Shown in pieces: positions 27,709 to 61,452 of a DNA stretch of 64,000 bases. Source of the stretch: Nanobdellota archaeon (GTDB lineage Archaea; Nanobdellota; Nanobdellia; Woesearchaeales; GW2011-AR4); the NCBI GenBank assembly GCA_022564635.1, contig JADFLA010000002.1, forward strand, positions 394 to 64,393. The letters run 5' to 3'. Positions within the stretch are counted from its first letter, which is position 1, and each line of letters opens with the position of its first letter. A program made the position numbers and the translations under genes. The notes under the pieces were generated by a model. That model was not told where the DNA came from, did not search any database, and was given only the letters and a program-made list of their open reading frames with translations.

Positions 27709-27816
27709 TGGGCCCATAGGGATTCGAACCCTAGACTTCAAGATTAAGAGTCTCGCACTCTTTTCTGCTTCGCATAAACTTTCGCTACGCGGAGTACCAG
27801 ACTGAGTTATGGGCCC
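27709..27816 (-). tRNA. tRNA-Lys(CTT) with a 34-nt insertion in the D-loop region
   Basis: GGGCCCA/TGGGCCC acceptor, CGAGA-CTCTTAA-TCTTG anticodon arm, TAGGG-TTCGAAT-CCCTA T arm; the D stem ACTC/GAGT forms only if CTCCGCGTAGCGAAAGTTTATGCGAAGCAGAAAA is removed; no encoded CCA. Confidence 0.85.
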
Positions 27817-34575: not shown

Positions 34576-34791
34576 ATAAGAAATTTTTTCAAAAATTTCT
34601 CGCTTTTTATATAAATTCTTTAAATTTTATATAGGTTAAATATAAATATATAGAAAATACCCCATATCAAATAGTGGGGTTAAACATAATACTCTAAAAC
34701 TGATTTATATATCAAAGCCTAAAGCTAAGATATAAAAACATAAAAATCTCTTTTTATGCTATATGGAATTTGAAAAATCTTCATGACACGC

Positions 34792-34835
34792 GAAAATCGA
34801 AAGATTTTCTGTGCCCTGGAAATCTACGATTTCCA
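34792..34835. repeat. two tandem hairpins of the GRAAATC family
   Basis: GAAAATC-gaaa-GATTTTC, tgtgccc, TGGAAATC-tac-GATTTCCA. Confidence 0.5.
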
Positions 34836-35001
34836 TGGAATCAGAATAAAAGTGTTATAAACCCCGCTATACCTTTTCTTTGCATTATTAATTACATTTT
34901 CATTTATAAATAATAATTCTACCCATATTCATAACTGTATAGATTAGCACTCACTATTCACATTATTCTGCTACTTTATTCACCACTTTATTGTGATAAA
35001 A

Positions 35002-37248: not shown

Positions 37249-37476
37249 TTATTCTGGAGAAATAACAGTTATCGTGTCTCCTCTTATAAACACTACTCCT
37301 AGCTTTCTTTTTACCTCATTATCAATATGCTCTTCAGCATCCTCTAGCACTACATTTATATGTATGTCAAATGATTTTAACTTACCAATATATGTCTTAT
37401 TATTCTTGAGTTCAACAATTACCCTTTTGTCTCTTGCTTTATTAAGAGCATCTAAAGGTCTAGAAGGTTCTGCCAT
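37249..37476 (-). CDS. Sm-like (LSm/SmAP) RNA-binding protein
   Basis: PLDALNKARDKRVIVELKNNKTYIGKLKSFDIHINVVLEDAEE...VFIRGDTITVISP: Sm1/Sm2 motifs. Confidence 0.85.
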   Translation of the reverse strand: MAEPSRPLDALNKARDKRVIVELKNNKTYIGKLKSFDIHINVVLEDAEEHIDNEVKRKLGVVFIRGDTITVISPE

Positions 37477-37540
37477 TTAATACACCCCGTACATAATAAC
37501 AGAGTTTTGGTATTTGTATTTAAATGTTTGTGTTATTGTG

Positions 37541-37655
37541 CGTTCCCTCACACCAGTGTATTGGGGTGTGTCTATGACACCCCCCCCCGAGACTACTTGA
37601 GATGATGCAGTCTCGGGGCATCGAAGATGCCCCTATACACTGTTTTACGGGAACG
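37541..37655. ncRNA. GC-rich multi-stem structured RNA candidate of unknown class
   Basis: Nested complementarity: CGTTCCC/GGGAACG, CAGTGTAT/ATACACTG, GGGGTGT/ACACCCC, CCGAGACT/AGTCTCGG, GGGGCATC/GATGCCCC; strand not resolved (the plus reading gives a GAUGAUG K-loop-like apex). Confidence 0.45.
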
Positions 37656-37664
37656 TAAAATTTT

Positions 37665-37678
37665 AGAAATTTATATAA
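37665..37678 (+). promoter_or_regulatory. TATA promoter for rps8e
   Basis: agaaatttatataa ~26 nt before ATG 37702. Confidence 0.5.
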
Positions 37679-37701
37679 ACCAACTCTATATTCTACTAAA
37701 T

Positions 37702-38082
37702 ATGGCAATTTCACAATTAAGGTCCTTAAAAAAACCATCTGGCGGAAAGTATAAGCAGCAAGGAAGGAAGAAAAAAGCATATGAGCTCGGTAGGGAACCA
37801 GCTTTAACAAAGCTTGAAAAAAAAAGGTCCAAATATGTCAGGACAAAAGGAAACCATAGAAAAGTAAGATTATTAAGCACTGACACCGCAAATTTATTTA
37901 ATCCAAAAGATAAAAAGTACGAGCAAGTAAAAATAAAAACAATAGTAGATAATCCAGCTAACAGACATTTTGTAAGAAGAAACATAATGACAAAAGGCAC
38001 AGTAATAGAGACAGAAAAGGGCAAGGCTAGAATAACATCTAGGCCTGGTCAAGATGGGGCTGTTAATGCTGTTTTGATTTAA
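37702..38082 (+). CDS. rps8e: ribosomal protein eS8
   Basis: [18 protein letters not shown]...GREPALTKL...KVRLL; start moved from 37627 to ATG 37702 (eS8 N-terminus, leaderless geometry). Confidence 0.85.
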
Positions 38083-38960: not shown

Positions 38961-39209
38961 TTATTGCTCATCTTTATGATACAAATCCAGGAAAACTATT
39001 TTATTATTGCCTTTTAGATAAGCATAAGAAATCCTGAATGGCCGTATGTGCAATTCCCTCGTACCCTTTCTTGAATACCTCATAGGTTTTCCAATTTCAG
39101 GAAATTCAATAATCTTGGCTATTTGTTTTTTGATTTTTTCCTTTAAAGCATTATTCTTTATCTTCTCAATTTTCTTTAAGAATTCAGGACTATGATTTAT
39201 GTCTAGCAT
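38961..39209 (-). CDS. relE: RelE/ParE-family toxin
   Basis: 82 aa; ...IGKPMRYSRKGTRELHIRPFRISYAYLKGNNKIVFLDLYHKDEQ typical RelE/StbE C-terminus; overlaps the upstream antitoxin by 7 nt. Confidence 0.75.
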   Translation of the reverse strand: MLDINHSPEFLKKIEKIKNNALKEKIKKQIAKIIEFPEIGKPMRYSRKGTRELHIRPFRISYAYLKGNNKIVFLDLYHKDEQ

Positions 39210-39478
39210 TTGGATAATTTTTTAAGGAATTTGTCCATAGGCATTGAAATAAATTCTCCCTTTTCATATCTTTTCCATGCTTCTTCTGTCCTTCTGGCAA
39301 ATTCAAGATCTTCTTCTAAATTTTCACTGAGTTTACTGGCTTTTTTCATAATTAACTTATCATCATCTTGGATTATAAGTAATTTATCCCCTACATGCAA
39401 TCCTTTTCTCATTTCTTTAGGTATAACTACTTGACCTTTCGAACTCATTTTCGTTATAGCAACATCCATATTTATCAC
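39203..39478 (-). CDS. AbrB/MazE-type antitoxin
   Basis: SSKGQVVIPKEMRKGLHVGDKLLI swapped-hairpin signature; promoter aaaacgaaaagtttatata at ~39503-39523. Confidence 0.7.
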   Translation of the reverse strand: MINMDVAITKMSSKGQVVIPKEMRKGLHVGDKLLIIQDDDKLIMKKASKLSENLEEDLEFARRTEEAWKRYEKGEFISMPMDKFLKKLSKC

Positions 39479-40865: not shown

Positions 40866-40881
40866 TAGAAAAGTTTATATA
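40866..40881 (+). promoter_or_regulatory. BRE/TATA promoter driving the small hairpin/micro-ORF unit
   Basis: tagaaaagtttatata; back-to-back with the minus-strand promoter gcaaaagatttaaata (40831-40846) of 39968-40804. Confidence 0.45.
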
Positions 40882-40937
40882 CTAGTTGATATTACCATAG
40901 TTTCGTTGATTTAAAGTCAACAGAAAATAATAAAACC

Positions 40938-40973
40938 AGGAGGCAGCGGAAAATCGAGATTTTCTGGCCTCCT
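40938..40973 (+). other. long imperfect hairpin in the leader of the micro-ORF
   Basis: AGGAGGC..CGGAAAATC-ga-GATTTTCTG.GCCTCCT; its 3' arm CCTCC can alternatively pair with the GGAGG SD at 40984-40988. Confidence 0.45.
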
Positions 40974-40995
40974 CGTAAAACTCGGAGGTACTAAA

Positions 40996-41028
40996 ATGAA
41001 AGGCGGAGAAGGTTGTAACATCTGTTAA
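40996..41028 (+). CDS. candidate 10-codon micro-ORF (MKGGEGCNIC) with a strong SD
   Basis: GGAGGT 6 nt upstream of the ATG; a second copy at the window end reads (M)KGGEGCGSC with a synonymous Cys codon change; followed by an oligo-T tract. Confidence 0.25.
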   Translation: MKGGEGCNIC

Positions 41029-41111
41029 TTCAGCTTAATAATTAAAATTTTATTTTTTTATTTTTTAATTATTACATTTATTTAATGGAAATTCATTATC
41101 GAAAATAAAAA

Positions 41112-52359: not shown

Positions 52360-53265
52360 CTAATCGGAGTCTCCGGATTCTCCCCCATTACCCCCTTCAT
52401 CACCATTATCATCTCCATTATTTGATTTTTTAAAAAAACTAATTATAAATTTCTCATCAATTTTATCCCCTTGTGTGTTCAATCTTGAATATCTAAGAAT
52501 TGCTTCTCTTATTGTATCTGTTGTTTCAAATCTTATTTCAAATGGATCTACACCATTTCCTTTAATTACCCTATCTTCTAAATCCATGCACATTGTTTCT
52601 GTTATGTTACTTACTGGTTTTTCATAGCATAATTGAACATCAAATAATTCAACATCGACACCACCAGATTCTGTAATTGTTCCTTTAAAATAATGAGCGT
52701 ACTGTTGAAATTTTTTGTAGATAGTTTCAACCTTTTCAGTTATAAAACTTATTTTAGCTTCTAAAGGTACTGGAGTTGGCGTAGGTACTGTAGTTGGAGT
52801 TGGTGTAGGTGTTGGAGGAACCGGGGTAGCTGCAGGTAGTGGTTCTGGTGTAGGTGTCGCAGGTTCAGGTGTTGGTGGTTCTAAAGTAGGAGTAGGTGGA
52901 ATATAAGGAGTTGGTGTAGGTGGTTCTGGTGTTGGTGGTTCTAAAGTAGGAGTAGGTGGAATAGTAGGCGTTGGTGATGGTTTTGGTGTATCTGTTGGTA
53001 GTGGATATGTTGGTGATGGTTTTGGTGATGGTTTTAGTGTTTTAGTAGGATAATGAGTTGGTGTTGGTGGTGTTAGAGTATACGTAAGTAAGGGAGTTGG
53101 TGTTCTTTCAGTAACTCTTTCCAATGTTGGGCCGGGGGTAGGAACTGGAGTTTGTGTACCTCCTCCTAATTGGCTTACTACAACTGCTCCAGCTATGGCT
53201 AATCCTATCCCTAATGCTAGTCCCCCATACACAATTTTTTTTGGACTATAACCATCTAATACCAT
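52360..53265 (-). CDS. membrane-anchored protein with long Pro/Thr-rich linker
   Basis: N-terminal [19 protein letters not shown], ~130 aa of PTPxP repeats, globular C-terminal domain, acidic G/D tail. Confidence 0.6.
52861..52980. repeat. 2 x 60-bp tandem repeat inside the PT-rich linker coding region
   Basis: 52861-52920 and 52921-52980 align base-for-base with a few mismatches ([13 protein letters not shown] units). Confidence 0.7.
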
Positions 53266-54338: not shown

Positions 54339-54489
54339 TAGAAATCCAACGGGATTTCTAGGGTGCCAAAAATGCAAAGGCATTTTTGTGCATATTTAGA
54401 ATAGTGAATTTTTTCAAGCACGAGGAAATCGGAGATTTCCTGTGTCCCAAAAATTGCGTGAAATGCGAGTGAGCTCGTTGCGAACTCGC
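54339..54489. repeat. cluster of four hairpins (GRAAATC family and relatives)
   Basis: TAGAAATCC-aacg-GGATTTCTA; CAAAAATGC-aaag-GCATTTTTG; AGGAAATC-gga-GATTTCCT; GCGAGT...ACTCGC; each followed by a GTGCC/GTGTCCC + A-run. Confidence 0.55.
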
Positions 54490-54543
54490 TCACAAGTCAC
54501 ACAATTTTTTAGGACATAAAAAGAATTTCATACTTTTTATACA

Positions 54544-55068
54544 ATGAAAAAAGGAATTGAGATGTCATTGAATTTTCTGGTTACTGTAATTATAGCTATT
54601 GTTATATTAGTTTTTGGAGTAAGATTTATTTCTGACCTTGTTGTTGAAACAACTAAACTGGAATCTCTAACAACAGATCAGCTTGACAAAAAAATAGAAA
54701 ATTTACTTTGCGAAACTGAAAAAGTATGTATCGGAACAACCAAAAAAACAATCCAAAAAGGTAAATTTGATGTTTTCGGAATAAAAATCATTAATATTAT
54801 TAGTGATGAAGAATTTTCAGATGAATTCAATGTTAATATTAGAGTATCAAAATTAATAAAAGATAATAATGAAATAATTGATCCAAACAAATTAAATAAA
54901 ATTAAATTAAAGTACAGAACCAATAATTTTATTGTCGAAAAAAATAATGAGGAAAGTATAGGTATTGGTGTAGAAGTTGAAAAAGATGCTGTTTCTGGAA
55001 CTTATATTTTAGATGTTGAAATTCCGCAATATGATGAAATATACAAGATTTATGTTGAAGTGCCTTAA
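54544..55068 (+). CDS. archaeal type IV pilin-like protein
   Basis: MKKGIEMSLNFLVTVIIAIVILVFGV class III signal; C-terminal beta-rich domain ending GTYILDVEI, similar in style to 53435-54028 (GSYLLTFDI). Confidence 0.6.
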   Translation: MKKGIEMSLNFLVTVIIAIVILVFGVRFISDLVVETTKLESLTTDQLDKKIENLLCETEKVCIGTTKKTIQKGKFDVFGIKIINIISDEEFSDEFNVNIRVSKLIKDNNEIIDPNKLNKIKLKYRTNNFIVEKNNEESIGIGVEVEKDAVSGTYILDVEIPQYDEIYKIYVEVP

Positions 55069-60935: not shown

Positions 60936-61060
60936 GGGCCAGTAGCTCAGCTTGGAACAGAGCGACATGTTTAATACACGCTAGAGCCTTCTAAGCTGTA
61001 GGTCGAGGGCAGGTTATTAGAATTTCTATGACCTCTCGAATTCGAATCCCTTCTGGCCCG
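60936..61060 (+). tRNA. tRNA-Arg(TCT) with two non-canonical insertions
   Basis: GGGCCAG/CTGGCCC acceptor; ACA[18 nt]GC-CTTCTAA-GCTGT; GAGGG[31 nt]TTCGAAT-CCCTT; 125 nt total, 76 nt after removal. Confidence 0.8.
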
Positions 61061-61143
61061 TTCTTTCTTTCGAGCGTAGCGAGAAAGCTCTTGTCGGAAG
61101 TCTCGGAACCGAAGGTTCTGAGGTGGGAATACCTTCTGGCCCG
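61061..61143 (+). other. structured trailer ending in a second, degenerate copy of the tRNA-Arg T arm and acceptor 3' strand
   Basis: Hairpins CTTTCT.TCG-agcgtag-CGAGAAAG and CTCGGAACC-gaa-GGTTCTGAG, then GAGGT-GGGAAT-ACCTT-CTGGCCCG; followed by cttttttt. Confidence 0.45.
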
Positions 61144-61149
61144 CTTTTT

Positions 61150-61452
61150 TTAAGAAATATCCCTATGCGTCTCGTACATAAATGCAGCATCTTTGTTGTG
61201 TTTTTTCATTGCAGCTATGACTTTCTTAAATATCTCTGATGAATCCACTGTCTTTTTCTTTCTTGCCCATGTTTTGATTTCTTTGCTTACTTTTTCGCAT
61301 ATCTTTTCTGCTTCTGTATGCTCTACATGAGAGCTTAGGCATGCTGCATAACAGCTTGCATAAACTTTCCTATCATCAAATTCCTCTGCATGGCCTTTTC
61401 TTTTTACAATGCAATACTTGCATTTTGCTCCTTCAATAATTTTTTCTTTCAT
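61150..61452 (-). CDS. ATP-cone domain protein
   Basis: IVKRKGHAEEFDDRKVYASCYAACL matches the ATP-cone opening (V.KRdG..e.Fd..Ki); 100 aa. Confidence 0.55.
   Translation of the reverse strand: MKEKIIEGAKCKYCIVKRKGHAEEFDDRKVYASCYAACLSSHVEHTEAEKICEKVSKEIKTWARKKKTVDSSEIFKKVIAAMKKHNKDAAFMYETHRDIS

Follow-up and report, generated by a model that had tools for sequence, protein, structure and literature searches.

Between the divergent LSm-L37e operon and S8e gene of the window, the whole 64,000-nucleotide stretch of DNA analysed here, a 115-nt insert at 37541-37655 fills nearly the whole gap between two outward-facing promoters, which raises the question of what this insert is (the LSM, L37e and S8e gene identities are Pfam assignments). 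The window itself comes from a metagenome scaffold of Woesearchaeota (DPANN). A first-pass annotation had proposed a single multi-stem RNA of a new class, carrying an apical K-loop of the kind bound by L7Ae, and had called the segment the most GC-rich and most self-complementary in the window. The latter description is borne out by folding. As RNA, the 115 nt reach -54.9 kcal/mol on the plus strand (z -6.4) and -63.1 kcal/mol on the minus strand (z -8.1), with 0 of 200 shuffles equally stable in either case, and as single-stranded DNA they reach -30.7 kcal/mol (z -7.0). In a 120-nt sliding fold over all 64 kb, 37541-37655 is the most stable segment, with a palindrome at 54421-54540 near behind. 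The claim on composition holds only as a tie: the element has 56% G+C compared to 31% window-wide, and shares its place as the richest 100-nt window with 52772-52871.

Two other segments come close to the element in these respects. Positions 52766-53114, with which the G+C maximum is shared, consist of degenerate, GGT/GTT-rich tandem repeats spaced 15-18 nt apart or at multiples of this, and lie inside an ORF (52360-53265, minus strand) for a low-complexity repeat protein. The palindrome belongs to a second, unrelated palindromic family found at 54421-54520 and 34790-34836, composed of CACG, a hairpin GGAAATC-GNA-GATTTCC and TGTG-CCC, with an extra long hairpin at 54440-54520. The minus strand of 54410-54545 folds to -56.9 kcal/mol (z -9.3) despite 39% G+C, directly 5' of the promoter of an ORF at 54544.

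Searches for known RNAs agreed with the earlier impression that the element fits no recognisable class. Rfam returned nothing over the element at gathering or E-value thresholds and only chance-level matches in the region (E ≥0.4), by which 5S, SRP, RNase P, Hgc and other known RNAs were ruled out. Because the window contains intron-bearing tRNAs that the tools overlooked, a tRNA or intron-containing tRNA was weighed seriously and then rejected: ARAGORN called no tRNA at the element, and neither a T-arm nor an anticodon arm could be drawn. One such overlooked gene is a tRNA-Lys(CUU)-like gene at 27709-27816 on the minus strand, whose acceptor stem, anticodon arm and T-arm (GGGTTCGAATCCC) are normal and whose D-loop region carries a ~34-nt insertion that looks like a non-canonical intron; neither ARAGORN nor Rfam reported it. 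Another GC-rich, tRNA-like region lies at 60980-61150 on the plus strand, where a T-arm and 3'-acceptor sequence (...TTCGAATCCCTTCTGGCCCG) is followed ~70 nt on by a second one (...CCTTCTGGCCCGC); no tool detected this region, which may represent a tRNA gene that is rich in introns or unusual in some other way.

The pairings that had been drawn for the element are present in the sequence. The outer closing helix joins CGTTCCC (37541-47) with GGGAACG (37649-55), the inner closing helix joins CAGTGTAT (37554-61) with ATACACTG (37635-42), a hairpin pairs GGGGTGT (37563-69) with ACACCCC (37577-83), and a run of nine C occupies 37580-88. The two remaining hairpins, CCGAGACT (37587-94) with AGTCTCGG (37609-16) around the 14-nt loop ACTTGAGATGATGC, and GGGGCATC-GAA-GATGCCCC (37615-33), can each be found, but they share G37615-16 and cannot both fully form.

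Alignment of 23 copies from other loci and the window yielded a unit consensus and a covariance model (R1), and with these the 115-nt element resolves into two inverted 51-nt repeat units, placed head to head and each with two hairpins. Each unit is built of a GTYTC head, an 8-bp hairpin (hairpin C) with a GNA triloop, a linker YAK-ACRCTG and a terminal hairpin TTKTAC-GGNNNC-GTAMAA; the constant part is the 3' module, ACRCTG followed by the terminal hairpin. The features of the locus are as follows.

37610-37660, plus strand: right unit, the canonical 51 nt (GTCTC head, hairpin C, linker TATACACTG, terminal hairpin), facing S8e; R1 score 77.5 bits, E 3e-24, for a unit that was in the R1 training set.
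37536-37593, minus strand: left unit, inverted, with a variant ("type-2") terminal hairpin, facing LSm; R1 score 33.2 bits, E 2e-9, full model, for a unit that was not in the training set.
37594-37609, no strand: 16-nt spacer between the unit heads, equal to the 14-nt apical loop (37595-37608) plus one base per side.
37615-37633, plus strand: hairpin C, an 8-bp stem GGGGCATC/GATGCCCC with a GAA triloop closed by C:G; covariation over 23 copies.
37643-37660, plus strand: terminal hairpin of type 1, TTTTAC-GGGAAC-GTAAAA, the sole match to the terminal-hairpin motif in the window.
37536-37553, minus strand: terminal hairpin of the left unit, type 2 and weak here, GTGTGA-GGGAAC-GCACAA; covariance-model alignment.
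37563-37584, minus strand: inner hairpin of the left unit, GGGGTGTGTC-ATA-GACACACCCC as read on the minus strand, then a C/G run; sequence, R1 and single-unit fold.
37665-37679, plus strand: S8e promoter (BRE-like AGAAA and TATA TTTATATAAA), 22 nt 5' of the S8e ATG at 37702.
37517-37524, minus strand: TATA of the LSm promoter (TTTAAATA on the minus strand), 11 nt past the left unit, with the LSm ATG at 37476.

Run over the whole window with filters off, R1 found exactly these two units, so copy density is low at one inverted pair in 64 kb. Type-2 ends occur in other copies too, as TGTGC-GGGTAC-GCACA and TGTGCAGGCATGCACA, with the same hairpin design and different stem letters. Folded alone, each unit forms just its own two hairpins; for the right unit as single-stranded DNA these are exactly two, at -13.8 kcal/mol (z -5.4). 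The position of the element between two divergent promoters suggests that the overlapping ORFs of the annotation track are indeed spurious, and since it sits 5' of the S8e BRE/TATA it is, as had been stated, not the S8e 5' UTR.

With the units delimited, the helices that had suggested one large RNA can be read in another way. The 5' arm of the outer closing helix lies in the loop of the left terminal hairpin and its 3' arm in the loop of the right one, and the helix is the pairing of these two loops. Likewise, the inner closing helix is the two ACRCTG linkers pairing, the CCGAGACT hairpin the pairing of the two unit heads, and the proposed K-loop the inter-unit spacer. The striking "multi-stem" fold follows from the symmetry of an inverted pair. 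In eight other loci (L009, L006, L005, L085, L249, L187, L291 and L233), the equivalent spacer is 0-25 nt long and of unrelated sequence.

To compare the locus with its orthologues, we examined 80 S8e loci from species-representative genomes and 5 more obtained via close S8e proteins. Among these loci, a related insert between LSm and S8e is found only in the window, L005, L006, L009, L084 and L085. Equally close relatives (L004, L007, L010, L012, L013, L014 and L086/L087) carry no insert and have a spacer of ~110 nt with both promoters intact, and carriers intermingle with non-carriers on a neighbour-joining tree of S8e. Even the closest relative, L084, whose S8e protein is 95% identical, has a different arrangement consisting of a compact 66-nt module only. 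The terminal hairpin is duplicated in tandem in L005, L006 and L085, and L005 and L085 have extra partial end modules, likewise in tandem.

The same comparison separates the repeat from its surroundings. The AGAAAT..TTATAAA block of the S8e promoter is also present at LSm/S8e sites without the repeat, which makes this promoter part of the gene and not of the repeat, and the LSm TATA is kept at sites both with and without it. A promoter inside the unit was considered and rejected, as there is no BRE/TATA-like sequence at the proper distance and the S8e promoter exists at repeat-free sites. We also considered that the 3' half of the terminal hairpin might be donated by the target, since the empty site of L007 already reads GTAAAATTTAG; however, L009 reads GTACAA there, and the terminal hairpin therefore belongs to the element. 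Two further observations concern this neighbourhood. First, a different insert of ~48 nt (containing GTCTCGGGAAAACTGAATTTTCCC) occurs at the S8e promoter of other Woesearchaeota, in L053 (~2400-2480) and L049, flanked by a 9-nt direct repeat GAAACCTAT, and looks like a MITE with target-site duplication. Second, a ParE-toxin/MazE-antitoxin-like pair at 38961-39478 (minus strand), ~900 nt 3' of S8e past one ORF, is kept in L085.

These orthologous sites bear directly on the proposal of a stand-alone small RNA gene of 115 nt with an L7Ae-bound K-loop, or, as a variant, an H/ACA-like guide on the minus strand. The very stable folds of both strands speak for it, as do the UGAUG and CUUGA in the loop of the window copy and, for the variant, a minus strand that offers a 7-bp lower stem, a 6x6 internal loop and an 8-bp upper stem followed by C-ACA. 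However, the outer helix and internal loop are lost in orthologues such as L009, close relatives lack the element altogether, and its parts are found singly elsewhere; nor does it have a promoter of its own or an Rfam match. As for the K-loop, the GA dinucleotides are out of K-turn register: the loop ACUUGAGAUGAUGC has a 4-nt offset to the first GA, its stem-adjacent end is GC rather than the GA that a K-loop needs there, and its length varies as that of a spacer. The guide geometry, with the ACA 14 nt from the upper stem, fits the window copy only; its lower stem and pocket are unconserved, there is no K-turn there, and the ACA falls in the flank that carries the LSm promoter. Comparison with other genomes has thus largely refuted the whole-element RNA model, which we regard as almost certainly wrong. 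When covariation and conservation were put to the proof, it was the local hairpins that passed, while the helices enclosing the whole element are not conserved in relatives.

The finding of the same units elsewhere was pursued by scanning metagenomes with a 24-nt degenerate pattern of the terminal hairpin and then running R1 over the matching loci. The pattern occurred on at least ~35 low-GC metagenome contigs (29-40% G+C) in unrelated contexts, and R1 gave at least 63 matches, corresponding to at least ~40 sites on ~30 contigs among the matches listed. Since none of the ~40 sites listed is spanned by an ORF of ≥100 aa, all of them were called intergenic. High-GC metagenome matches were human gut contigs with conserved coding sequence and were set aside as unrelated noise. 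In IMG/VR the specific pattern had no match, and because of this the 98 matches to a loose 14-base pattern were taken as chance.

The sites take the form of single units, inverted pairs and complex or nested clusters, and as many as three of them lie within 8.8 kb (L254). Inverted pairs with outward-facing units are present in the window, L006, L009, L085, L187, L211, L233, L249, L254, L284 and L291, and singletons at ~20 sites among the matches listed. One compact module of 66 nt, element A, is near-identical in L084, L005, L192, L218, L243 and L284, and in L218 and L284 it is inserted at the identical point of hairpin C. Scattered, modular and confined to intergenic DNA, the copies form a family of palindromic repeats found in a single Woesearchaeota (DPANN) lineage.

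Occupancy varies at other genes as well. In L307, a unit plus a 61-nt AT-rich stretch lies between purL and purQ, while in two relatives the upstream ORF stops 1 nt before purQ. Among contigs with an identical PurQ protein, five of the eight shown break inside or at the unit, as expected of a multi-copy repeat. A unit stands in front of grpE only in L006. The grpE leader of the window (40867-41111, before grpE-dnaK-dnaJ) has features of its own: a conserved inverted repeat GTTGATTTAAAGTCAAC at 40905-40921 that is also found in L005, L086 and L304, a GC-rich hairpin at 40936-40975, and a mini-ORF of 10 codons at 40996-41028 (MKGGEGCNIC), which has a Shine-Dalgarno sequence GGAGGT. The mini-ORF is shared with L006.

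Several lines of evidence show that two of the element's hairpins are under selection to pair. First, in the 23-copy alignment 99.4% of stem cells are paired (98.9% for hairpin C alone), and sliding the partner columns by 1-3 positions lowers pairing to 34-58%. Second, double-sided changes occur in 5 of the 8 hairpin C pairs and in one terminal-hairpin pair, amounting to 41 cells compared to 13.2 in shuffles, a number reached by 0 of 500 shuffles. Third, position 3 of the terminal-hairpin stem is UA in 13 copies, GC in 8, CG in 1 and GU in 1, and the terminal half-sites as a whole have changed on both sides in 10 cases and never lost pairing through a change on one side only, one copy being G·U. 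The wobble pairs are also asymmetric. Read in forward orientation, 43 distinct copies contain 14 G·U and 3 A·C mismatches, or 13 and 2 once a misaligned row (1 G·U, 1 A·C) is set aside; this asymmetry, which rests on ~15 informative pairs, indicates that the fold matters on one strand.

The loop of hairpin C is GNA in 26 of 35 copies, and its closing pair is C:G in 31 of 35. A GNA loop with C:G closure corresponds to d(cGNAg), which we take to be the classic, very stable DNA mini-hairpin. Such loops lean towards a single-stranded DNA form of the unit and are no proof of it.

The terminal palindrome also invites a different explanation, in which the copies are protein-binding DNA sites, for example activating, operator or insulator sites with a dimeric regulator on TTKTAC-N6-GTAMAA near promoters. 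At many sites this palindrome does lie 3-13 nt 5' of BRE/TATA, and between LSm and S8e it occurs towards the promoters on both sides. A fixed protein specificity, however, is at odds with half-sites that change together within a copy (the 10 double-sided changes and 0 single-sided breaks above), which points to pairing instead; copies abutting start codons or inside operons do not fit the role of an upstream site, and the modules are nested and truncated. We therefore hold regulator sites to be very unlikely, and find this reading, like those of a stand-alone sRNA, K-loop or H/ACA guide, poorly supported.

The units show a strong orientation relative to genes. In our reading of the sites listed, the terminal hairpin of single units faces the adjacent gene start 16 times and away from it 3 times, and pairs tend to be found between divergent genes, where each unit faces the gene on its side. 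The distance from terminal hairpin to ATG falls into two groups, 0-2 nt at 11 sites and otherwise 31-71 nt with BRE/TATA in between. Six of the abutting ATGs are genuine starts, since the Pfam profiles of their products (PurQ, GT2, ferredoxin, GrpE, PdxT and TatD) start no later than residue 7; in the Lhr helicase, EamA and RNase PH genes the position of the profile was uninformative, and a further protein matched no profile. Units that abut an ATG or lie inside an operon must be transcribed in sense. Units 5' of promoters, including the window pair, should not be.

In a rival reading, the units are host cis-acting RNA modules, perhaps co-opted repeats, that as sense 5' leaders or intercistronic spacers would tune stability, processing or translation start of mRNAs lacking a Shine-Dalgarno. 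The sense orientation (16 vs 3) is what such modules would show, and units ending 0-2 nt before start codons (six of them confirmed by Pfam), necessarily co-transcribed units within operons (purL-purQ in L307, and L289 7658-7708), wobble pairs on the sense strand and covarying hairpins all fit as well. About half of the copies, however, the window's among them, lie 5' of BRE/TATA, and no sense transcript is expected from pairs between divergent promoters. The neighbouring genes are functionally unrelated, close relatives differ in whether they carry the element, and C:G-closed GNA triloops presumably suit DNA hairpins better than RNA; moreover, RNA modules would be compatible with a mobile origin. 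As an account of the family this is unlikely, yet a sense-strand RNA leader role is a live secondary reading for the ATG-adjacent copies.

We consider it probable that the copies are a non-autonomous, REP/REPIN/BIME-like repeat family in a DPANN lineage, in kind like MITEs too. The repeats themselves are observed directly; their mode of spread we infer. The units would spread as non-autonomous DNA mobilised in trans by a putative transposase, probably via a single-stranded DNA stage with recognition of the two forward-strand hairpins, much as IS200/IS605 and RAYT systems do. These small genomes have very short intergenic spacers, and an insertion would persist only at points where it is tolerated, namely just 5' of BRE/TATA or exactly between a transcription start or upstream cistron and the ATG. 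A unit that abuts an ATG or lies in an operon could affect mRNA stability or translation. The window pair between the LSm-L37e and S8e promoters is probably neutral or only mildly regulatory.

The search for machinery and traces of such movement gave the following. A crude regular expression for the IS200/IS605 TnpA N-terminal motif had no match in ~0.8 Mb of low-GC genome fragments. Clustering of neighbouring proteins revealed no recurrent protein family beside the elements, and among the loci examined no outward-facing unit pair encloses an ORF as a parent element might. Target-site duplication was not regular among 37 sites (13.6 for matched flanks vs 12.6 for mismatched ones), and occupied and empty LSm/S8e sites show no clear target duplication. 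The exception is L254, where a 30-nt direct duplication (27/30 identical; 8030-8059/8121-8150) flanks a single unit, the sole long flank duplication in the 37 sites; it corresponds to the 3' end of the upstream gene including its stop codon. Origin (ORB) repeats and integron attC sites were considered and rejected, the units being scattered at unrelated intergenic sites with neither orc1/cdc6 nor intI adjoining among the loci examined. The lack of a transposase and of regular target duplications in these searches weighs against our account, as do the low copy density in the window, the absence of the pattern from IMG/VR and the small number of pairs behind the wobble asymmetry. The strong sense orientation and exact start-codon placement could mean a host function and not selfish spread.

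A bolder version, which we offer as a long shot, is that this would be the first REPIN-like system in Archaea (DPANN), with two-hairpin units that move as single-stranded DNA and are targeted to, or kept at, melted transcription starts or start codons, some copies having been co-opted as sense leaders flush with the ATG of leadered, non-Shine-Dalgarno mRNAs. REP surveys in archaea left DPANN uncovered (PMC12306157), a recent paper on complete Nanobdellota genomes (bioRxiv 10.64898/2026.05.13.725050) does not mention such repeats, and in the searchable literature we found no description of this family.

The kind of element is in itself no surprise, REP-, BIME- and MITE-like elements being common in prokaryotes. 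For annotation, the case illustrates that GC-rich, strongly folding islands in AT-rich DPANN genomes lure ncRNA discovery, and this one is a repeat; the lesson holds for the second palindromic family of the window too. Turnover between close relatives is unexpected, as DPANN genomes are small and tightly packed, and this family nests into itself, splits the translationally coupled purL/purQ and sits flush against start codons. The family accounts for breaks in assemblies, could be used to mark strains, and gives access to archaeal single-stranded DNA transposition or leader-RNA effects on translation.

Among known systems, archaeal L7Ae-binding RNAs (C/D, H/ACA) resemble the element in being GC-rich and folded while the surrounding archaeal genome is AT-rich, and in this one copy the loop has UGAUG and GA dinucleotides. 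Unlike them, the element has no conserved boxes, no conserved loop, no guide-like conserved single strands and no Rfam match. MITEs (Correia/NEMIS, ERIC, pneumococcal BOX/RUP, Sulfolobus SM elements and IS200/IS605-derived PATEs) are closer: they too are non-coding, ~100-150 bp long, with long terminal inverted repeats and a long hairpin, and they too insert close to promoters or within operons, where co-transcription is frequent, and cause assemblies to break. In the window, the two units are inverted copies of each other, as the terminal inverted repeats of a MITE are, and BOX elements are similarly modular. The family differs in having no regular target-site duplication and no known parent IS, in that single "half" units are as common as pairs, and in that its internal hairpins covary, which is not required of plain terminal inverted repeats.

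The comparison with REP, REPIN and BIME elements also has two sides. The family departs from them in its archaeal DPANN host and in its 51-nt unit with two hairpins and a conserved linker. Its head is an invariant G-T/G-Y-T-C followed by a hairpin (CGTCTC in several copies) and bears no GTAG tag; no RAYT was found in the genome fragments searched, and its units lie on the 5' side of genes, facing them, whereas REPs are typically at gene 3' ends. The organisation of REPINs is matched, and the family is a candidate member of the RAYT-dependent REPIN class proper. The resemblances are extensive. Short GC-rich hairpin units are scattered in intergenic DNA, they combine into mosaics in which compensating changes keep the stems and the structure belongs to one strand, and their copy number and occupancy vary between close relatives. 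Like the GTAG/CGTC REPs, which are mostly head-to-head dimers and singletons (PMC3733652), the units described here occur mostly as head-to-head inverted pairs and singletons.
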